Positions 4,577 through 58,330 of a DNA stretch of 64,000 nt are shown here, piece after piece. How positions within the stretch are numbered: position 1 is the stretch's first letter; every line of letters begins with the position of its first letter. The DNA is from a bacterium. GTDB taxonomy: Bacteria > Patescibacteriota > Minisyncoccia > Minisyncoccales > GWA2-46-15. The stretch lies in assembly GCA_030704795.1 (NCBI GenBank), contig JAUYCZ010000003.1, positions 2,412-66,411 of the forward strand, written 5' to 3'. The notes below the pieces were generated by a model, which did not search any database, was not told the DNA's origin, and worked only from the letters and a program-made list of their open reading frames with translations. Made by a program: the position numbers and the translations under genes.

Positions 4577-5863
4577 ATGACCAGAAAAAGCAAACTATTG
4601 TTTTTCTTTCTTCTGACCGGAGTTCTCCTGGCCAGTTTTGCGCTGGCGCAAAAACCCTTGGAGATAACCTATCCCACCATTCCCTTGGCCGATACGCCCA
4701 TGACGATTAAAACTTCTCTGCCGGCTTATTTAAAATACCTTTTCAACTTCTCTCTGATCGGCGCCGGCATCCTCATTTTTTTGGCTCTGCTCAAGGGCGG
4801 ATTTAGTTATCTGACTTCGGCGGCCAATCCCGAAGGCTTGAGAGACAGTCGAGACCAGTTGATCTCAGCCGTCATCGGCACCATTCTCTTGCTCTCTTCT
4901 TATATCATTCTCAATACTCTCAATCCCACCCTGACGGTTCTAAAGATGCCCGGCGCCAAAATTGCCAAGGAGATCCACGTCTGGAGCGATCCGAATCGAG
5001 GCGGAAATGACATGGGGCTCAAGGTGAGCAATCCCGACCTCGCCGCCACTCTCGGGTCGAACGGCGCGCAGTATCTCGAGTTCATCGTCACCAACCCTGA
5101 CGAGGTTGACGTCAGTGCCTACCCGGACGTTAATTACGGCGGCTCGCCGATCAGGATCACCACGCCCGGCAATATTGCTCTGGCTAAGTCCATTTCTCTG
5201 GCCTGGAAAATCCCGGGAGTTTATCTCTATTCCGGAACGAGTCTGGGCGGAGAACCACGGCTTTATCTTTTTAGCCAAGCCGCCTTAACCGACTTTAATG
5301 ATAAGGCTCAGTCGGTTCGGCTGCTTAATCAAGGAAGCAATCAATTTGCCGCGGTTTTGCACAAAGACCAAAATTTCCAGGGCGAGTGCGCTGTCATCTT
5401 CAACGATCAAAACAGCTTGGCCAATGAGGACGCTACCGGCGGGGGAGTCGTCGGCAACAATCAAGCCTCGGCCATCACGATTTTTAAACCGGACTTGGGT
5501 CGGGCAGCTTCCGGCGGGGAAGGCGTCACCCTTTTCGGCAAAGATTCCTCAAGAAATAAAGTCGGCGTGCGGGCCACCAATAACAGAATCACTAGCTTCC
5601 CGGTCATGGGAGTCGAAAACGACTCGGTCGATGAGGTTGAAATTCTCGGCAGCTATATCGCCGTCCTTTTCGAGCACAACAATTTTCGCGGCAAGTGCGC
5701 CGTTTTCACCAAGAGCGACGATAATCTGGCGGACGACCCGATCGGCAAATGCCAAGGCTCTCCCTACGGTAATTGTTTCTGCATCCCCGTCATTAATTGG
5801 TGCGTTCCCTGCGAGGGCCCCTGTACCTCTTCTTTTATGGTCTTTCCTGTCAAGCCTTTTTAA
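4577..5863 (+). CDS. Secreted fusion protein: T4SS pilin-like module + beta/gamma-crystallin-like repeats + Cys-rich tail
   Basis: Signal peptide MTRKSKLLFFFLLTGVLLASFALAQ. Pilin-like core LKGGFSYLTSAANPEGLRDSRDQLISAVIGTILLLSSYIILNTLNPTL. Greek-key-like [YFH]x4[YFL]xG motifs: YPDVNYGG, HKDQNFQG, FEHNNFRG. Tail CQGSPYGNCFCIPVINWCVPCEGPC. Confidence 0.75.
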   Translation: MTRKSKLLFFFLLTGVLLASFALAQKPLEITYPTIPLADTPMTIKTSLPAYLKYLFNFSLIGAGILIFLALLKGGFSYLTSAANPEGLRDSRDQLISAVIGTILLLSSYIILNTLNPTLTVLKMPGAKIAKEIHVWSDPNRGGNDMGLKVSNPDLAATLGSNGAQYLEFIVTNPDEVDVSAYPDVNYGGSPIRITTPGNIALAKSISLAWKIPGVYLYSGTSLGGEPRLYLFSQAALTDFNDKAQSVRLLNQGSNQFAAVLHKDQNFQGECAVIFNDQNSLANEDATGGGVVGNNQASAITIFKPDLGRAASGGEGVTLFGKDSSRNKVGVRATNNRITSFPVMGVENDSVDEVEILGSYIAVLFEHNNFRGKCAVFTKSDDNLADDPIGKCQGSPYGNCFCIPVINWCVPCEGPCTSSFMVFPVKPF

Positions 5864-6327
5864 CCGATTGGCTTGGGTTTAATAACAACTCTTCTCTCTG
5901 AGCCCTCGCCCCGGCTTTCGGTGATAACGTCTGATCGACTGGCCAGGGTTAAATGAATAATTCTTCTTTCTTGTGCTAGCATCGGCAACAGTTCTTTTTC
6001 TATTTTTAGCAAAGATACCTCGTTGGCGGTGGTGTGGGCTAATTCTTCGAGATAAATCGTTTTTTTCTGCTTGTAGCCGTTAATGTCTAGGTCGAAAAAG
6101 AAAGGTTCGATGATTTTCCTTCGAAAAACCAGCCGCAATAAATACTGGATTTCGTCCAGGGTCTGTCCCTGTTCGCCAATCAACAACTGAGGCGACTCGG
6201 TCTCCAGGTTGACCTTGAGAGTTTCTCCCTCGAGATTGTCCTCCTTAATTTCGATTTCAATCGTCGCTTTCTGGAAGAACTCTTTGATGGTATTTTTAAT
6301 TGTTTCTCGTTGTTCGTGGGAAAGCAT
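5860..6327 (-). CDS. jag: Jag/KhpB RNA-binding protein (KH + R3H domains)
   Basis: KH-like LLIGEQGQTLDEIQYLLRLV and C-terminal R3H-like RRIIHLTLASRSDVITESRGEGSERRVVIKP. Sits in the conserved position downstream of yidC. Confidence 0.8.
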   Translation of the reverse strand: MLSHEQRETIKNTIKEFFQKATIEIEIKEDNLEGETLKVNLETESPQLLIGEQGQTLDEIQYLLRLVFRRKIIEPFFFDLDINGYKQKKTIYLEELAHTTANEVSLLKIEKELLPMLAQERRIIHLTLASRSDVITESRGEGSERRVVIKPKPIG

Positions 6328-31460: not shown

Positions 31461-32139
31461 AGAATTATTAGAGAAGACAAAAAAAGATTATAATTTGATT
31501 GCCGAGGAGTTTTCCCGGACGCGGCGCAACCTTTGGTCAGAACTCTTTGCTGTTTTTAAAGATTATACCAAAGAAAAGGACAAAGTCTTAGACGTTGGCT
31601 GCGGCAACGGCCGGTTTTTAGACTTGCTCGGCCAAAAGAAAATAGATTATATCGGCGTTGATAATTCAGAAGAACAGATCAGAGAAGCCCAAAAGAAATA
31701 TCCGGACAGAAACTTCCTGGTGGCCGACGCTTTAAATCTGCCGTTTCCCAATGATTCTTTCGATAAAGTTTTTTTGATCGCCGTTTTGCACCATATTCCC
31801 AGCATAAATTTAAGGATAAAAGTTCTGGCTGAACTTCAGAGAGTTTTAAAACCCGGAGGCTTTTTACTTTTAACCGTCTGGCGGCCGCCTTTGGCAGAAA
31901 TCCTTAAACTGATTTCAAAATACTCTTTTTTGAGATTGATTAGAAGATCTAAAATGGATTTTGGCGACGTCCTTGTTCCCTGGGGAAGCCGGGTTGAAAG
32001 ATACTATCATTTTTTTAAAAAGAGTGAGATTATGGAATTAGCTAACCGGGCTGGTTTTAAGACGCTCAAGTCAGAAATTGTCAGGAATCAAACCGGCAAA
32101 AGATCAAATCTTTATTTGATTGCCCAAAAGTCCCCGTAG
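31441..32139 (+). CDS. Trm9-like class I SAM-dependent methyltransferase
   Basis: Start at ATG 31441. YNLIAEEFSRTRRNLW, LDVGCGNGRFL, LVADALNLPFPNDSFDKVFLIAVLHHI, LKPGGFLLLTVW, DVLVPW and RYYHFF follow my recollection of yeast Trm9 block by block. Confidence 0.7.
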   Translation: MKERLAKELLEKTKKDYNLIAEEFSRTRRNLWSELFAVFKDYTKEKDKVLDVGCGNGRFLDLLGQKKIDYIGVDNSEEQIREAQKKYPDRNFLVADALNLPFPNDSFDKVFLIAVLHHIPSINLRIKVLAELQRVLKPGGFLLLTVWRPPLAEILKLISKYSFLRLIRRSKMDFGDVLVPWGSRVERYYHFFKKSEIMELANRAGFKTLKSEIVRNQTGKRSNLYLIAQKSP

Positions 32140-32203
32140 TTCAATTGGATAGAATGCCTCCCTCCGAAGGAGGAGATTGTGCGTTCGAGTCGCACCGGGG
32201 ACA
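32130..32203 (+). tRNA. tRNA-Arg (anticodon CCG), CCA not encoded
   Basis: Hand-folded cloverleaf: acceptor GTCCCCG/CGGGGAC, anticodon stem CCTCC/GGAGG with loop CTCCGAA, T arm GTGCG TTCGAGT CGCAC, discriminator A. 74 nt. Confidence 0.9.
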
Positions 32204-32229
32204 CAAGAGGTTTTAGTGAACTTCATAAA

Positions 32230-40007: not shown

Positions 40008-40048
40008 TTTTCGATGAGTTTTTAATTCTAAAAACTATAAACTAGAAG

Positions 40049-40374
40049 TGGAGGCGCCGAGAATTGCACCCGGGTCCAGGAAATTTTCCCAAAGGAAGAC
40101 TACAAGCTTAGCCTAATTTTTCTTTGAAGCAGGAAAGACCATTAGGCTGGTTTTCCCGCCAATCTTGGCTTTCGCCAGAAAAGAACACTTTTCTCGATCA
40201 AAAATGACACCTAGAATGACCTATCGAGATTGAGTCGTCCCAGATGCTGCTCTAAGCGTAGGCTAGAGCAGGAGAACTGAATGAATTGGCACTTGTTTTT
40301 TGCAAGTTTTAACGAGGTCTTGCGCCTCGGCTTGCCTTTCTTGGGGCAGATTTCTGTCGAAGCTTTTCGCCCCC
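40049..40374 (-). ncRNA. ssrA: tmRNA (SsrA), about 326 nt, CCA not encoded
   Basis: 5' end GGGGGCGAAAAGCTTCGACAG and 3' end GGACCCGGGTGCAATTCTCGGCGCCTCCA. Acceptor stem GGGGGCG/CGCCTCC includes the G3:U pair. Tag ORF GCC AAT TCA TTC AGT TCT CCT GCT CTA GCC TAC GCT TAG (40252-40290) encodes ANSFSSPALAYA. Adjacent to smpB. Confidence 0.88.
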
Positions 40375-52851: not shown

Positions 52852-53991
52852 ATGCAGCGAAAACCTACAAAAGAAAGCCTAAAACATCTCTATTGTGAAA
52901 AGCTTTTGTCGTCGCGAGACATTGCCGCCAAATATGGTTGCGATCAAGGAGTAATTCTTAGGCGTCTACGAAAATTCGGAATACCCATAAAACATCCCAC
53001 CAAAGAAATAACGATTCCCGAGAACATTCTCGAAAAGCTTTATGTTGAGGAGGGCCTATCGACGTATAAGATAGCAAAGAAATATCATTGTGATGCGAAG
53101 ACGGTCTACAAGAAATTACTCAAGTTCCAAATTCCAACTCGTCCTCGCAAGGTAGTTAAAATCTCTAGAAGAGAACTCGAGCACCTTTATTTTAAAAGGT
53201 GTCTTTCTTTGTCTGCGATCGGGAAATTATATAAGTGTGACCCTGTCGCAATTTTCAAGAAAATGCGGAGCCTAGGTTTTTCTTTAAGAAAGAGCTGGGA
53301 GACTGGCAGAAAATACCCTAGATACAATTTTAGCGGCAACTTAACGGAAAAGGCATATCTCTTAGGGTTTAGGGCTGGTGATTTGGGCGTTAGGCAATTC
53401 GGCAGGTTCGTTAAATCCATACGCGTCGGATGTAACTCGACCAAAGTAGCTCAAATCACCCTGATCCAAAAGATTTTTAAAAGGTATGGATCGGTCTGCA
53501 TTGGCAGACAGCTATCGAACGGAGTAAGAAATATTACCGCCACTCTAAACAAATCTTTTTCTTTTTTGCTTCCCAAAGAAGATAAAATGCCTAGATGGGC
53601 CCTGAAAAGTAAGAAATATTTTTTATCGTTTGCTGCTGGTTACATTGATGCCGAAGGTAGTATTGGTATTTATACCAATCGGGCTAAATTTCGAGTAGGT
53701 TCGTACGACATAGGAATACTGAGAAGTTTACTCAAGGGCTTTATTCGTTTGGGAATAAAGAAAGCCCATCTAAGACTAGAAACAAAAGCGGGCTTCGTGG
53801 ATAGAAGTGGATTAAGACATAATGGCGACTTTTGGAGAATAACAGTTAACGAAAAAGATAACCTTTTGTTATTATTCGATTTAATCGGTCCCTATCTACA
53901 ACACGCCGATAGAATTAGGGCGATGGAATTAGCCAGGAGTAATGTTGAAGAGAGAAACGCTGGATTTTACAGTTCCAGCGGTTTAAGATAA
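52852..53991 (+). CDS. Free-standing double-motif LAGLIDADG endonuclease-like protein with three N-terminal HTH-like repeats
   Basis: LAGLIDADG motifs YLLGFRAGDLGV and FAAGYIDAEGSIGIY. Three ~40-aa repeats of the form L..LY....LS...IA..Y.CD......L..F.I (about 52873-53272). Confidence 0.75.
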   Translation: MQRKPTKESLKHLYCEKLLSSRDIAAKYGCDQGVILRRLRKFGIPIKHPTKEITIPENILEKLYVEEGLSTYKIAKKYHCDAKTVYKKLLKFQIPTRPRKVVKISRRELEHLYFKRCLSLSAIGKLYKCDPVAIFKKMRSLGFSLRKSWETGRKYPRYNFSGNLTEKAYLLGFRAGDLGVRQFGRFVKSIRVGCNSTKVAQITLIQKIFKRYGSVCIGRQLSNGVRNITATLNKSFSFLLPKEDKMPRWALKSKKYFLSFAAGYIDAEGSIGIYTNRAKFRVGSYDIGILRSLLKGFIRLGIKKAHLRLETKAGFVDRSGLRHNGDFWRITVNEKDNLLLLFDLIGPYLQHADRIRAMELARSNVEERNAGFYSSSGLR

Positions 53992-54007: not shown

Positions 54008-55447
54008 ATGACTTCCAAATACTACGTCACAACCGCAATCGATTACGTGAACTCTAAACCTCATTTGGGCCATGCTTTAGAGAAAATACAGGCCGATGTT
54101 TTGGCCCGATGGCATCGTCTTAAAAACAATGATGTTTTCTTTTTGACCGGTACTGACGAGAATGCCCAGAAGAATGTTATGGCAGCTAAAATCGCCGGCG
54201 TTCCAGCTCAAGAATTCGTTGACAAGAATGTCGCTTCGTTTCAAGAACTCCTCAAGGTTTTAAATATCTCCAACGACGATTTTATCCGGACTACCGATAA
54301 AGCAAGGCACTGGCCCGGAGTGGAAAAATTATGGCGGGCCTGCTCGGAAGCCGGCGATATTTACAAAAAATCATATACTGGTCTTTATTGCACCGGTTGC
54401 GAGTCTTTTTTAGCTGAAAAAGATTTAGAAAACGGTCTTTGTCCCGAGCATTTAAGGAAGCCAGAGCAGATTTCAGAAGAGAATTATTTCTTTCGGCTTT
54501 CGAAATACCAAAGAAGGCTGAAAGACTTGATTGAGAAGGACGAGCTGAAAATCATTCCCGAAAAGAGAAAAAAAGAGCTATTAAATTTTATTGACTCGAA
54601 AGATTTTAACGATTTCAGCGTTTCCCGGCCGACCGAGAGAATGAAAAATTGGGGAATTTCAGTGCCCGGAGATCCGAATCAGATAATTTATGTCTGGAAA
54701 GATGCTCTTGGAAATTACATTACGGCGTTGGGCTATGGTGGTCCTGACGAAACGACGTTTCAGAAATACTGGCCGGCAGATGTTCACGTCATCGGCAAAG
54801 GGATTTTGAAATTTCATGCTATTTATTGGCCGGCAATGCTCTTGTCGGCTGGCATTGAGCCGCCAAAAGCGATTTTTGCCCACGGCTACATAACGATTGG
54901 CGGCCAAAAAATGTCAAAGAGCTTGGGTAACGTCGTTGACCCGATTGAGTTAGTAAAGAAATACGGGGCAGACCCTGTTAGATATTTTTTGTTGGCAGAA
55001 ATTCCGTCTCTAGACGACGGCGACTTTACTCTTAAGAGATTTGAGCAAAGGTACAATGCCGATTTGGCCGGCGGCTTGGGGAACTTGGTGGCGAGGGTAG
55101 TGACCCTGAGCGAAAAGCGAAAAATCAGAATCGGAAAATTAACGAATCCGGAAATCGCCGCGGTCATTAAGGAAACGAAAGAGAAAACGACCAAGGCCTT
55201 AGAAGAATTTAAATTCAATGAGGCCTTATCAGTCATTTGGCAATTAATTTCTTTTTGCGACCGCTATATCGATAAAACCAAGCCTTGGGAAGAGAAAGCG
55301 GGATCAGAAGAGGTGATCGCCGATTTATTGCTGACCATCAAAGAAATTTCCGATCTGCTTTTGCCATTTTTACCCGGGACCGCGGGAAAAATTCAGCAGC
55401 AGCTTTTGAGGAATAAAAAAGAAATTCTTTTTCCGCGGCTGGCTTAA
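54008..55447 (+). CDS. metG: Methionyl-tRNA synthetase (short form)
   Basis: SKPHLGHA (HIGH), KMSKS, Zn knuckle CTGCESF...CPEH. Confidence 0.92.
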   Translation: MTSKYYVTTAIDYVNSKPHLGHALEKIQADVLARWHRLKNNDVFFLTGTDENAQKNVMAAKIAGVPAQEFVDKNVASFQELLKVLNISNDDFIRTTDKARHWPGVEKLWRACSEAGDIYKKSYTGLYCTGCESFLAEKDLENGLCPEHLRKPEQISEENYFFRLSKYQRRLKDLIEKDELKIIPEKRKKELLNFIDSKDFNDFSVSRPTERMKNWGISVPGDPNQIIYVWKDALGNYITALGYGGPDETTFQKYWPADVHVIGKGILKFHAIYWPAMLLSAGIEPPKAIFAHGYITIGGQKMSKSLGNVVDPIELVKKYGADPVRYFLLAEIPSLDDGDFTLKRFEQRYNADLAGGLGNLVARVVTLSEKRKIRIGKLTNPEIAAVIKETKEKTTKALEEFKFNEALSVIWQLISFCDRYIDKTKPWEEKAGSEEVIADLLLTIKEISDLLLPFLPGTAGKIQQQLLRNKKEILFPRLA

Positions 55448-55489
55448 CCGATTTGACAAACTTCTTGAATCATGGTTATTAACTAGTAT

Positions 55490-55573
55490 ATGCAAAGATT
55501 TTCCGCCCCCAGATTCTATTTCTATTTTTACTTTAAATCCTCTGGGCGAGGAAATCTTTTGCCAATGGTCTAA
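55490..55573 (+). CDS. Candidate 27-aa leader peptide MQRFSAPRFYFYFYFKSSGRGNLLPMV
   Basis: ATG 55490 to TAA 55571-55573. Seven consecutive aromatic codons at 55514-55534. Embedded in alternative hairpins upstream of a terminator. No SD. Confidence 0.5.
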   Translation: MQRFSAPRFYFYFYFKSSGRGNLLPMV

Positions 55574-55605
55574 GTCTAATTACTAATTAACTCTGCGCAA
55601 AAGAC

Positions 55606-55627
55606 ACCTCGCCAACGAGGTTTTTTT
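55606..55627 (+). terminator. Intrinsic terminator (attenuator segment 3:4)
   Basis: ACCTCG CCAA CGAGGT followed by a T7 run. It ends 5 nt before ATG 55633. Confidence 0.7.
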
Positions 55628-55632
55628 AATCT

Positions 55633-56481
55633 ATGAAAACGAATAAACCCCAGAGACTGCGTCAATTACTAAAATCTAGAAAATCACTCTTGATGCCCGT
55701 AGCTCACGACGCCCTGACGGCCAAATTGATTGAGCGGGCCAGTTTTGAGGTTTTTAGTATTGGGGGCTTAGGCATTGCCGCTAGCCAATTCGGTTTGCCG
55801 GATATGGGAATTTTGGGCCAGGGAGATTTTCAGCCGAGCATTAAAAATATTCTGGCCGCCAGTAAATTGCCGGCTCTGGTTGACGGCGATACCGGTTACG
55901 GCAATGAATTAAATGTCCGACGGTTAGTTAGAGAATACGAAGCTCTGGGCGCGGCCGCCATCTTCATTGAAGACCAGGTTTGGCCCAAAAGATGCGGCCA
56001 TACTGGAGTCAAGGAAGTTATTCCGGCCGAGGAAATGGCAAGGAAAATTGAGGCCGCCGTTAGGGCGAAAACCAATCTGGACCTATTGATTATGGCAAGA
56101 ACCGATGCTCGGTCTGCTTGCGATTCTTTGGCAGAAGCGATTAAAAGGGCAAAAATTTATTTAAAAGCCGGCGCCGAAGCGATTTTCATTGAAGCGCCCC
56201 GGACCATCGAGGAAATTAAACGGATTCCCAAAGCTTTGCCCAATACCATTCTTTTAATCAATATGATGGAGGGGGGTCAGACCCCGCTTTGCTCGCAAAA
56301 GGATTTAGAGAATTGGGGCTATAAAATAATTGCCTATCCCTTGACCACGATTTTGACAATGACGAAAGCCGTTCAAGACTCATTAGCGTACTTAAAAATA
56401 AATGGGACAACCAATGATTATTTTCTAAAAAACATGGCAAGTTTTGAGGAATTAAAACAATTACTTGGGTTCCCCGAGTGA
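55633..56481 (+). CDS. Isocitrate lyase / PEP mutase superfamily protein (PrpB-like)
   Basis: VDGDTGYG and IEDQVWPKRCGH motifs. Confidence 0.8.
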   Translation: MKTNKPQRLRQLLKSRKSLLMPVAHDALTAKLIERASFEVFSIGGLGIAASQFGLPDMGILGQGDFQPSIKNILAASKLPALVDGDTGYGNELNVRRLVREYEALGAAAIFIEDQVWPKRCGHTGVKEVIPAEEMARKIEAAVRAKTNLDLLIMARTDARSACDSLAEAIKRAKIYLKAGAEAIFIEAPRTIEEIKRIPKALPNTILLINMMEGGQTPLCSQKDLENWGYKIIAYPLTTILTMTKAVQDSLAYLKINGTTNDYFLKNMASFEELKQLLGFPE

Positions 56482-56504: not shown

Positions 56505-57425
56505 ATGGCAAACAAAAAAATCGTCTTTTTCAACGGCAAGTTCGTCCCTTATGAAAAGGCGGTCGTTTCCGTCGCCTCGCACGCTTTAAATTATGGCACC
56601 GGCTGTTTTGAGGGTATTCGAGCTTACTGGTCAGAAAACCGGAAAAAGCTTTTTGTCTTTCGTTTGAGAGACCACGTCAGAAGGATGAAGCGGTCGGCTA
56701 AAACCCTGTTTTTGAAGCTACTAGTCAGCGAAAAAGAGTTTTGCCAGGTAGTGGTTGAATTATTGCGCAAAAACAAACCCAAGGAAGACACCTATATCCG
56801 GCCTTTGCTCTTTAAATCAGAAGAAGTTATCGGTAAGTTTGATTTGCGAAAACTTCAGGACGGTTTTACGATTTTCACCGTGCCCTTGGGCCGCTATCTT
56901 AACACCAGCCAAGGAGTAAAAACGATTATTTCTTCTTATCGTCGAGTTGATGACAGAACCGTGCCGCCATTCGCCAAGCCCACCGGCATTTATTTAAATA
57001 CCGCCCTGGCCAAAACCGAGGCCCTGGAAAAAGGCGTGGACGAAGCGATTCTTTTGAACCTAGACAACTCGGTGGCCGAAGGTTCGGCGGAAAACATTTT
57101 TCTAGTTAAAGGCGGTAAGCTAATTACTCCATCTCTGGACCAGAACATTTTAGCGGGAATTACCCGCCAGACGATTATCGAGCTGGCAAAAAGAGAGTTG
57201 AATATGGAAACCGTTCAGCGAAAAGTGATGAGTAAGGAATTATTTTCTGCCGACGAAGTGTTTTTGACCGGCACCGGTGCCGAAGTCGCTCCGGTGATAG
57301 AGATTAACAGAAAAAAAATCGGAGATGGCAAAGCGGGCAAAATTACCGCTCGGCTTCAATCTCTCTATTTTCAAATCGTCCACGGCGAGAATCGAAAATA
57401 TTCTCGATGGCTTACTAGGATCTAA
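56505..57425 (+). CDS. ilvE: Class IV (branched-chain amino acid) aminotransferase
   Basis: FEGIRAY, EGSAENIFLVK, GITR, LTGTGAEV. Confidence 0.85.
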   Translation: MANKKIVFFNGKFVPYEKAVVSVASHALNYGTGCFEGIRAYWSENRKKLFVFRLRDHVRRMKRSAKTLFLKLLVSEKEFCQVVVELLRKNKPKEDTYIRPLLFKSEEVIGKFDLRKLQDGFTIFTVPLGRYLNTSQGVKTIISSYRRVDDRTVPPFAKPTGIYLNTALAKTEALEKGVDEAILLNLDNSVAEGSAENIFLVKGGKLITPSLDQNILAGITRQTIIELAKRELNMETVQRKVMSKELFSADEVFLTGTGAEVAPVIEINRKKIGDGKAGKITARLQSLYFQIVHGENRKYSRWLTRI

Positions 57426-57429
57426 AGCC

Positions 57430-57458
57430 TTGACAGCCCCGCTGGGAATTGGTAAGTT
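57430..57458 (+). promoter_or_regulatory. Promoter TTGACA-17-TAAGTT
   Basis: TTGACA 57430-57435, TAAGTT 57453-57458. Confidence 0.45.
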
Positions 57459-57477
57459 TGAATATTCCCGCATTTTC

Positions 57478-57615
57478 ATGAAGACCGACTCGTTACAATT
57501 GAGCAATTTAATTCTTTCCAGCCGATATTTGAAGGTGGCGCTTTTGGCCATTATTCTTTTTGTCGTCAACCTTGAACAAAGGCCGGGAGACTTAAAGAAA
57601 GAGTATCAGTTGTAA
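57478..57615 (+). CDS. Doubtful 45-aa ORF with one hydrophobic helix
   Basis: MKTDSLQLSNLILSSRYLKVALLAIILFVVNLEQRPGDLKKEYQL. Promoter upstream and terminator downstream, but no SD. Confidence 0.25.
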   Translation: MKTDSLQLSNLILSSRYLKVALLAIILFVVNLEQRPGDLKKEYQL

Positions 57616-57645
57616 ACCAGAAACTGAAATCGTAAACCAGAAACT

Positions 57646-57674
57646 AAAACCTCCCGGCCCACCGGGAGGTTTTT
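57646..57674. terminator. 12-bp hairpin terminator (A-run / T-run flanked, potentially bidirectional)
   Basis: AAAACCTCCCGG CCCA CCGGGAGGTTTT. Confidence 0.7.
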
Positions 57675-57758
57675 AAGTCTTGGGGATCGAAATTTGATTG
57701 TCAGGACCATCTTGGCAATCAAATTGAGACCCACCATCTTATAGAAAGGAGGCTTGAA

Positions 57759-57884
57759 GTGGCAAAAGTTGCCCCACGAGGATGGGGGCGGTACTCGAAC
57801 AATCACCGCTCCAGAAAAGTCAAAAAGAAAGGCACTTCTTTTTGGCGTAAGGTCCTAGAGGCGTTGCGCAAGAAGAAGCGCTAG
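57759..57884 (+). CDS. Possible 41-aa basic small protein
   Basis: Strong SD AAAGGAGG lies 6 nt before GTG 57759. Sequence MAKVAPRGWGRYSNNHRSRKVKKKGTSFWRKVLEALRKKKR. Followed by an 11-bp hairpin at 57899-57931. Confidence 0.35.
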   Translation: MAKVAPRGWGRYSNNHRSRKVKKKGTSFWRKVLEALRKKKR

Positions 57885-58056
57885 GACGATTTGAAAAGAG
57901 TGGGCGCGAGGCACAAAGACTCGCGCCCACCCACCAAAATTAGTTTTAGATGAGTTTTTGGCCTGAAGCTTTGATCATGAGTTTCGTGGTTAATCTTCAG
58001 GCAAAAAACCCGGACCGGTTCCGGGATAAGCCTAAAAACCATTTTTGGAGGGAAAG

Positions 58057-58242
58057 ATGATATTGAGATCGGATCCTGGTCGTTTGCAAGAGCTTCTGGC
58101 GGCATATTCGCAGGAGGAGGCGATCCTTCGGAAAAGGCTCACCGCTGATTCAGCGCCTCTCAGGAGGATTGAGCGCGTGAAGCGGCTGGCTAAACTAGAA
58201 ATGGAGCTTATTCCGCGAGTGGTCGCGGAGCTTCAGAGCTAG
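58057..58242 (+). CDS. Possible 61-aa helical small protein
   Basis: SD GGAGGG lies 4 nt before ATG 58057. Sequence MILRSDPGRLQELLAAYSQEEAILRKRLTADSAPLRRIERVKRLAKLEMELIPRVVAELQS. A terminator follows. Confidence 0.4.
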   Translation: MILRSDPGRLQELLAAYSQEEAILRKRLTADSAPLRRIERVKRLAKLEMELIPRVVAELQS

Positions 58243-58256
58243 TGAAGTGACAATGT

Positions 58257-58290
58257 GGCTCGCGAGAAGACTCGCGAGCCCCTGTTTTTT
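58257..58290 (+). terminator. Rho-independent terminator
   Basis: GGCTCGCGAG AAGA CTCGCGAGCC ... TTTTTT. Confidence 0.75.
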
Positions 58291-58330
58291 ACCCTCTCTT
58301 TTGCTAGAATAAATTATATATTAAATTTTT

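Follow-up and report, generated by a model that had tools for sequence, protein, structure and literature searches.

A candidate ribosome-mediated attenuator with alternating Phe and Tyr codons before a PEPM-family gene in Candidate Phyla Radiation bacteria

What controls the two genes that follow metG in a 64,000-nucleotide (nt) stretch of contig JAUYCZ010000003.1, from a bacterium of the Candidate Phyla Radiation (CPR, or Patescibacteria), and to what signal does that control respond? In this stretch, called the window here, a spacer of 185 nt separates the metG stop codon (55447) from the ATG (55633) of a PEPM-family gene, itself followed by an aminotransferase gene. The spacer holds a promoter-like sequence, a short open reading frame (ORF) with a run of phenylalanine (Phe, F) and tyrosine (Tyr, Y) codons, alternative RNA hairpins and an intrinsic terminator. 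An initial annotation, all of whose elements we find where it placed them, took these parts for a Phe/Tyr attenuator. Attenuators of the classical kind belong to textbook regulation; most documented cases are from Proteobacteria, and a few come from Actinobacteria and Firmicutes. Our analysis makes it highly probable that the spacer is a classical ribosome-mediated (leader-peptide) transcription attenuator sensing charged tRNA-Phe and tRNA-Tyr; the annotation's reading is supported by conservation, by covariation, by folding under a ribosome mask and by the presence of pheS-pheT or tyrS in relatives. The parts, their conservation, covariation and spacing are read from the sequence and its comparison across lineages.

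The leader ORF contains seven consecutive aromatic codons (FYFYFYF), as had been pointed out, and among the 381 ATG-started ORFs of 10-45 codons in the window it alone has seven F/Y residues in seven, the next-best runs being one of 5 and five of 4; the aromatic run is beyond chance. Elsewhere in the window, elements of the same build (TTGAC, an ATG 35-41 nt further on, a short ORF and a terminator) were not found, except for a 6-codon chance match.

The minimum-free-energy (MFE) fold of 55483-55632 (-33.1 kcal/mol, z = -2.8 against shuffles) consists of a hairpin at 55492-55562, with the aromatic codons in its loop, and the terminator hairpin. The proposed terminator, ACCTCG-CCAA-CGAGGT followed by a T-run (55606-55627), is detected by a terminator scan, and its arms are termed segments 3 and 4. 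Within the whole leader the best complement to CCTCGCC of segment 3 is GGCGAGG (55545-55551), the core of segment 2; the annotation had noted this match, and the duplex energy of -13.9 kcal/mol is equalled in 0 of 300 shuffled leaders (-5.5 +/- 1.7 kcal/mol). Segment 2 has two other possible partners, a distal segment 1 before the aromatic run and a local segment 1', TCCTC, which is an imperfect copy of the terminator 5' arm and sequesters segment 2 in a local hairpin (55538-55552). The minus strand folds about as well (-43.4 kcal/mol, z = -2.4); an element on that strand was considered and dropped, the promoter, ORF, T-run and both flanking genes all lying on the plus strand.

The terminator scan also flags 55538-55552 as terminator-like, and no terminator of metG's own is seen in the 5 nt between its stop codon and the leader promoter, so that 55606-55627 probably ends metG transcripts too. 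Both observations would fit a plainer account, in which the hairpin and T-run are the ordinary metG terminator, 1':2 is a duplicated, weaker terminator, and the ORF and the 2:3 pairing are by-products of the duplication. This account leaves the promoter, the ORF and the aromatic run unexplained, and the comparisons below make it very improbable: the element travels with the PEPM gene while upstream neighbours vary, and segment 2 tracks segment 3 across lineages, whereas old duplicates would drift apart.

Relatives were taken as loci encoding PEPM orthologues at 45-84% protein identity, drawn from public assemblies, a metagenome scan and a genome scan, and are designated here by L numbers; the closest named relative of the window protein belongs to Candidatus Magasanikbacteria (CPR/Patescibacteria, 80% identity). 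The same layout is found in 17 instances from about 14 CPR lineages, and every CPR locus with enough upstream sequence has it. Each instance has an ORF of 15-28 codons with an in-frame Phe/Tyr run, a G-rich segment 2 and an intrinsic terminator with a T-run, and the layout lies directly before the PEPM gene or, in L100, before an HMGL-like gene that precedes it. Conservation of the ORF, its frame and its aromatic run, which the annotation proposed as a check, extends over all 17 instances, and in L002 a 3-nt indel leaves the frame intact. The leader peptides share little beyond the F/Y run, nearly all other sequence being different. The fetched loci (727 kb) contain 4,904 small ORFs, of which 30 show five or more F/Y residues in seven; 23 of the 30 are these leaders, and another is the poly-Tyr leader described below. 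The genome scan, built from a 25-sequence alignment, used patterns that were too general, and among the matches listed it gave only distant homologues (<=49% identity), comprising at least two CPR loci that carry leaders and some 78 non-CPR loci that do not. None of these approximately 78 non-CPR PEPM homologues fetched, among the matches listed, has such an ORF in the upstream position. Since the upstream neighbour differs among relatives (metG, DUF5660, rplT, EF-G, a transposase, HicAB, acetyl-CoA synthetase or a divergently transcribed gene), the element belongs to the PEPM gene and not to metG.

A conserved ORF could in principle encode a functional hydrophobic micro-protein to which the RNA structures are unrelated, and the C-terminal half of the leader peptide, SSGRGNLLPMV, is indeed well conserved in the close clade. 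That conservation, however, coincides with segment 2 and its pairing partners and is gone in distant lineages, where ORF length ranges over 15-28 codons and the F/Y run alone persists. We regard a micro-protein as extremely improbable.

The terminator is present in every relative with arm sequences that differ by lineage (ACCTCG, ACCTCC, GCCTTC, ACCCGC, ACCCCG, AGCTCCC, AACCCCGC, ACCCTCC, AATCCCGC and AACCTCCC), and a T-run of at least six follows the stem directly in every instance. The best complement to its 5' arm lies 46-65 nt after the leader ATG in every locus, and segment 2 begins usually 9 nt (range 3-19) past the last aromatic codon. Alignment of 15 leaders with MAFFT and RNAalifold recovered the terminator alone, with register errors, and was used neither for pair counts nor for a covariance model; we therefore used an alignment-free test, in which the duplex energy of a segment with its own partner is compared with that obtained with partners from other lineages (100,000 permutations). 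For the 2:3 helix, across 11-13 lineages, the own-locus energy is -15.3 to -15.6 kcal/mol against -10.3 to -10.4 kcal/mol for cross-locus pairs, and for the 3:4 helix -13.8 against -8.4 kcal/mol, with 0 of 100,000 permutations as extreme in either case. Terminator arms and segment 2 thus change together, which is the compensatory change that the annotation had asked after. Covariation of the 1':2 helix is weak (own -9.3, cross -8.1 kcal/mol; 1,753 of 100,000 permutations, p about 0.02), and each of the 16 instances analysed has a local hairpin of -4.2 to -12 kcal/mol immediately behind the aromatic run. The 1:2 hairpin enclosing the aromatic run, as first described, appears in the MFE fold of the window, but this long distal helix is clade-specific: it is kept in the window clade, with analogues in L011, L097, L012 and L126. 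The predicted anti-antiterminator that is conserved is the local 1':2 hairpin, not the long distal 1:2 helix.

Pairing probabilities were also computed under a mask of the standard ribosome footprint in bacteria, 28 nt (A-site codon -15 to +12), moved codon by codon. In the window the calculated probability of the terminator is 0.98 without a ribosome; it is at most 0.1 while the A site is at codons 2-12 and about 1.0 at codon 13 and later ones. For transcripts that end right before segment 4, segment 3 pairs as long as the A site is on an aromatic codon and is free 2-4 codons later, where the footprint covers segment 2; this is so in 14 of 14 loci and sets the switch point at the end of the aromatic run in every one of them. 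The ability of 2:3 to compete with 3:4, on which the annotation had made its reading depend, is borne out in our analysis.

In the mechanism that we propose, transcription would start at, or a few nt before, ATG 55490, as the promoter geometry suggests, and a ribosome would begin the leader ORF. With Phe- and Tyr-tRNA plentiful, it would pass the FYFYFYF run onto segment 2 while the polymerase makes segments 3 and 4; with segment 2 covered, 3 and 4 would pair, and the terminator would release a short transcript of ~140 nt. With no ribosome present, segment 1 or 1' would hold segment 2 and the terminator would form again. Where Phe- or Tyr-tRNA is scarce, the ribosome would stall on the aromatic codons with a footprint covering 1 and 1' and ending just short of segment 2, so that 2:3 pairs, the terminator is blocked and the polymerase reads through into the PEPM-family and aminotransferase genes and, in relatives, on into pheS-pheT or tyrS. 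The features by which such attenuators are recognised are found here, namely an ORF with a codon cluster, a terminator before the first structural gene, a 2:3 pairing exclusive with 3:4, and a 1:2 pairing that a ribosome could disrupt to leave segment 2 free.

The covariation of 2:3 and 3:4 proves a switch and not its trigger, and the same switch might be thrown by another sensor that binds the leader RNA, such as a protein, a small molecule or, in the manner of a T-box, an uncharged tRNA, the ORF being incidental; the lack of a Shine-Dalgarno (SD) sequence before the ORF would agree with this. Such a sensor seems quite unlikely. An ATG-to-stop ORF with an in-frame F/Y run is present in all 17 instances amid diverging sequence, its frame surviving a 3-nt indel and its ATG keeping a fixed distance from the promoter, while the spacing from the run to segment 2 fits a ribosome footprint; the sole conserved 'ligand site' would be the Phe/Tyr codon run itself. 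Neither a T-box nor any other Rfam family matches the element: at gathering score only a transfer-messenger RNA (tmRNA) and a tRNA are reported in the window, a search of 55300-55800 at E <= 10 gave two chance matches (mir-392 and ceN70) and no leader, T-box or small-RNA family, and the 14 related loci gave no family match.

Table 1. Features of the window, followed by the leader peptides of related loci with the class of enzyme encoded after their PEPM genes
Feature	Position	Strand	Basis or remark
metG, upstream neighbour, outside the switch	54008-55447	+	Pfam tRNA-synt_1g
-35 hexamer TTGACA	55453-55458	+	Sequence; spacing kept in relatives
-10-like hexamer TTATTA, 17 nt after the -35; TG at 55473-55474	55476-55481	+	Weak by consensus
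Leader ORF, 27 codons, ATG to TAA	55490-55573	+	Encodes MQRFSAPRFYFYFYFKSSGRGNLLPMV
Segment 1 (distal), 5' arm of the long hairpin around the aromatic run	55492-55513	+	MFE fold
Putative regulatory codons TTC TAT TTC TAT TTT TAC TTT	55514-55534	+	Seven consecutive aromatic codons
Segment 1' (local), TCCTC	55538-55542	+	Pairs with GAGGA, 55548-55552
Segment 2, core GGCGAGG	55541-55562	+	Partner is segment 1, 1' or alternatively 3
Segment 3, terminator 5' arm ACCTCG(CC)	55606-55613	+	CCTCGCC, 55607-55613, complementary to segment 2
Segment 4, terminator 3' arm CGAGGT	55616-55621	+	Terminator scan
T-run of the intrinsic terminator	55621-55627	+	Sequence, terminator scan
First gene of the putative regulon, PEPM/ICL-family lyase-type enzyme with PKRCGH loop	55633-56481	+	Pfam PF13714, 2.6e-44
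Second gene of the putative regulon, ilvE-type class IV aminotransferase	56505-57425	+	Pfam PF01063; NCBIfam NF005146
Leader peptide, L002			MQRLSARNYFYFYFTSSGRGNLLPMV; other class I/II aminotransferase
Leader peptide, L010			MRRFSAQSFCFYFYFTSSGRGNLLPLI; ilvE-type
Leader peptide, L094			MQRSSAKNFHFYFYFTSSGRGNLLPMV; other class I/II
Leader peptide, L123			MKKVSVAKFYFYFYFESSGRGNLLLLSK; ilvE-type
Leader peptide, L124			MTKLGKNFFYFYFSTSIKEVAFLV; ilvE-type
Leader peptide, L011			MNRALGYFYFYFLTSEGGGALLVT
Leader peptide, L100			MKQTNQNFFKYYFYNSLKREVGLLFI; other class I/II
Leader peptide, L095			MMTLSVNKFFYFYLPRCG; Cys/Met-family pyridoxal-phosphate (PLP) enzyme in the aminotransferase place (L095/L130)
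Leader peptide, L096			MTYTITNTFSFTSFTSGAFVA; ilvE-type
Leader peptide, L097			MKNANVFSGGYFYSLTISGGCLRLIN; hisC-like
Leader peptide, L125			MTGSKNVYFFSFYFA; other class I/II
Leader peptide, L126			MTNGLFFFTFVYFNRKAVREGIKK; other class I/II
Leader peptide, L132			MTNGLFFFTFVYFSRKAVREGIKK; other class I/II
Leader peptide, L012			MSTQGKKFFYFFAYLA; ilvE-type
Leader peptide, L014			MQIPASNFYYFFTSQVRGALGSLN; ilvE-type
Leader peptide, L133			MTNCQIKKFSFFFFNSPDGDECC; other class I/II

The promoter suggested by the annotation is present in the window and its geometry is kept in relatives: TTGAC precedes the leader ATG by 36-40 nt in 13 of the 14 distinct loci, and L100 and L133 have it as well; the -10 hexamers of relatives are TATAAT, TAAAAT or TATACT at a spacing of 16-17 nt, followed by 7-11 nt to the ATG. 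With the -10 hexamer so close to the start codon, the 5' untranslated region of the leader transcript would measure 0-4 nt. As no SD sequence precedes the leader ATG in the window or its relatives either, translation of the leader ORF probably starts on a leaderless, or all but leaderless, transcript. In L092 (~2275-2345) and L094 (~100-350) the TTGAC box is duplicated, an insertion, TAATTTCGAGCGAAGCGA(A/G)AAAAAAGC, separating the copies, and L094 carries in addition an orphan leader-like ORF, MKKIAAVKTWFYSYFLTLGGGNLLTIK, with its own TTGACA/TATAAT promoter and then a remnant of the metG 3' end, which suggests that the leader module was recombined or duplicated there. A second, paralogous leader-like ORF, MSLIKPTNQTFFKYFFII, is seen in L100 (5430-5490), where it ends 3 nt before an uncharacterised ORF with no terminator between them.

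A number of points weigh against the attenuator as proposed. The start of transcription, translation of the leader, stalling, and termination or read-through are steps that we infer. TTATTA in the suggested promoter is a poor -10 hexamer, and a promoter scan does not list it. Given the missing SD sequence, leader translation would hinge on leaderless initiation, which for CPR is a supposition. L011 and L132 have no TTGAC promoter before the leader, whose ATG lies 4 and 13 nt, respectively, past the stop codon of the upstream gene; because of this, initiation there must differ, by coupling or re-initiation. The annotation had a ribosome that reaches the stop codon covering segment 2, and in this it was mistaken: in the window segment 2 is covered while codons 17-26 are read, and a ribosome on the stop codon no longer covers GGCGAGG, so that its timing with respect to RNA polymerase is important. 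When full leaders are folded at equilibrium, the switch is clean in the window clade and not in all lineages, and the transcripts cut before segment 4 told more; L002, L094, L124, L096 and L014 prefer 2:3 even without a ribosome, while L011, L095, L126, L097 and L125 prefer the terminator regardless, and the model therefore needs co-transcriptional folding kinetics, as in E. coli systems. Within the aromatic run, changes fall at codon position 3 in 6 of 10 variable columns (p = 0.08), which is suggestive only, and the run of L096 is weak (FSFTSF). Finally, the window operon has no gene unambiguously specific to Phe or Tyr.

The GAGG of segment 4 stands 12 nt before ATG 55633, with no other SD-like sequence there, and may also serve the PEPM gene as its ribosome-binding site; the 3:4 hairpin may then hide this site and add translational control. 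Regulation could even be translational throughout, stalling serving to free the site, or the aromatic peptide could be an arrest peptide whose signal is not tRNA charging. In the window clade and in L011 the terminator 3' arm has a GAGG or GGAGG, 12-13 nt ahead of the PEPM start codon, again with no other SD-like sequence. Both ideas are nonetheless quite improbable, since a T-run of six or more directly after the stem is a hallmark of intrinsic termination and needless for SD sequestration, in L126/L132 more than 130 nt separate the hairpin from the start codon, and the peptides have no common motif beyond the codon run. Transcriptional and translational control are not exclusive, and the two may act together. 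In the Collierbacteria-like lineage the ~130-160 nt between the attenuator terminator and the PEPM start (L126 2870-3000; L132 4845-5000) contain another hairpin, CTGATTTTTC...GAAAAATCAG, and a small ORF, MNNPVNSLFGCVDEGHETKQVFYRGN.

If the spacer is a transcription attenuator, its target genes should have some connection with Phe and Tyr. The PEPM-family protein carries a lyase-type PKRCGH loop, with K119 R120 C121 G122 H123 invariant, and scores 262 bits on the prpB model, below the cutoff of 354; its closest solved relative in a PDB search is the petal death protein (1zlp), a broad-specificity 2-alkylmalate lyase. An aminotransferase gene always follows, its class varying by lineage, and that of the window scores 355 bits on NF005146 (cutoff 279). 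One may speculate that the PEPM-family enzyme supplies or removes a 2-oxo acid for the aminotransferase, and it is plausible that the window operon of PEPM lyase and ilvE-type aminotransferase serves Phe/Tyr supply. Homologues of the PEPM protein align from residue 1-4 of its 282-aa form and share a conserved N-terminus, M..NKPQ(R/K)LRQLL. The public gene call at the identical locus L001 (P0001, 262 aa) starts 20 codons too late (L001 3318-3377 = window 55633-55692), and an exact look-up of the 282-aa protein returned no record.

The connection with charging is supported by the relatives. On the same strand further downstream lie pheS-pheT in L125, L126/127 and L132, tyrS in L097 (TIGR00234, 329 bits) and a pheS-like gene in L096, which supports a link between the codon run and Phe and Tyr charging. 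The gene order (thrS-)infC-rpmI-rplT-[F/Y leader]-PEPM-aminotransferase-pheS-pheT is found in L125 (1-6831), L126/L127 (1116-6834) and L132 (3672-10194). L095 has a second putative attenuator of the same build at 1316-1430 (= L130 ~5790-5905), in the interval that separates the PEPM gene from the next operon. The leader ORF here, MIMIRLKNNLYYYYYYPAGGLY, has six Tyr codons and is followed by a local hairpin, CCCGC-cg-GCGGG, and a terminator, AACCCCGC-caaaa-GCGGGGTT with a T-run. The operon behind this poly-Tyr leader encodes a methyltransferase-like protein of 324 aa, a Cys/Met-family PLP enzyme, uncharacterised proteins of 197 and 203 aa and tyrS (NF006330, 378 bits). In L100 (1159-4500) the gene between leader and PEPM gene encodes an HMGL-like protein of 395 aa, resembling isopropylmalate, citramalate or homocitrate synthases.

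Other observations concern the surroundings of the locus. Directly upstream of metG, 52852-53991 encodes a 379-aa protein with weak HTH_38 and TnsD-like matches; L002-type relatives have a TP_methylase gene in this place, and the window gene may for this reason be an insertion of a mobile-element gene. After the aminotransferase gene, ~900 nt (57426-58330) contain no long ORF and several strong hairpins on both strands, for example at 57646-57673 (-) with a 12-bp stem and at 58257-58280 (+) with a 10-bp stem and T-run; the single gene call there on the public contig is of 61 aa. The only RNA genes that Rfam and ARAGORN find in the window are the tmRNA at 40046-40374 (-), with tag peptide ANSFSSPALAYA, and tRNA-Arg(CCG) at 32130-32204 (+).

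CPR bacteria account for a large share of bacterial diversity and are largely uncultured, and to our knowledge almost nothing is known of their gene regulation. A conserved attenuator would provide a sequence-level argument for coupled transcription and translation in these organisms, and for translation of leader ORFs without an SD sequence. It would also attach the label 'induced by Phe/Tyr-tRNA shortage' to a conserved enzyme pair in genomes thought to lack amino-acid biosynthesis, turning a vague annotation into a testable biochemical hypothesis, and its layout (promoter, ATG within 7-11 nt, codon run, copy of a terminator arm, terminator) offers a template in the search for further CPR attenuators. 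More tentatively, and with more doubt than confidence, we suggest that leaderless leader-peptide attenuators with mixed Phe/Tyr, pure Tyr or pure Phe runs are a general CPR device. They would control aminoacyl-tRNA synthetase genes together with a module made of a petal-death-protein-like 2-alkylmalate/ICL-type lyase and an interchangeable aminotransferase, joined in one lineage (L100) by the isopropylmalate-synthase-like enzyme, and the module would be an unrecognised route for making or salvaging Phe and Tyr. Were this true, reduced and supposedly auxotrophic CPR bacteria would make or salvage both amino acids by a route so far overlooked, and the attenuators would for the first time give evidence of a dependence of CPR on tightly coupled transcription and translation.

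Among known systems the closest is pheM, the leader of E. coli pheST-ihfA. Both have a short, Phe-rich leader ORF that includes Tyr (compare MTKLGKNFFYFYFSTS... in L124), followed by alternative hairpins and an intrinsic terminator; pheM senses the cognate charged tRNA and controls pheS-pheT, and the CPR leader would do likewise. In the E. coli order thrS-infC-rpmI-rplT-pheM-pheS-pheT, moreover, pheM holds the position after rplT that the CPR leader occupies in L125, L126/127 and L132. The CPR loci differ in having PEPM-family lyase and aminotransferase genes between leader and pheST, in alternating Tyr with Phe, in an apparently leaderless start without an SD sequence and in the host phylum. 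In the lineage of the window pheST is absent from the operon; the leader there stands between metG and the PEPM gene, with no pheST gene after it in the window. Common ancestry is possible; sequence homology between pheM and the CPR leader is not demonstrable. With pheL, the pheA leader (Rfam Phe_leader), and with trpL, hisL, leuL, thrL and ilvL, the CPR element shares a run of codons for the regulated amino acid and the 1:2, 2:3 and 3:4 helices; the regulated genes differ, and none of the Rfam leader families matches it. The passages on pheL in one source describe these genes as short, with runs of Phe codons, and as known only from Gammaproteobacteria (PMC3082878).

Outside Proteobacteria, the polycysteine leaderless short ORFs of mycobacteria are Cys-responsive attenuators (bioRxiv 10.1101/834739). 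They resemble the CPR element in a leader ORF at or near the transcript 5' end, which for CPR is suggested by promoter geometry, and in an operon controlled through a run of codons that specify a single amino acid. Amino acid, phylum and target genes are not the same, and the CPR element ends in a canonical terminator with its T-run. Actinobacteria also have classical attenuators upstream of trpS and leuS, according to the relevant passages of a survey, which report no Phe or Tyr attenuators in that phylum (PMC1262725). Like these, the CPR element would place aminoacyl-tRNA synthetase genes under leader-peptide control outside Proteobacteria, with other amino acids and in another phylum. A full-text literature search found no description of leader-peptide attenuation in CPR/Patescibacteria, in agreement with the initial annotation, which knew of none. 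The mechanism proposed is thus an ordinary one; what is new is the phylum, the regulon, a run that alternates Phe with Tyr, and a start that is probably leaderless.

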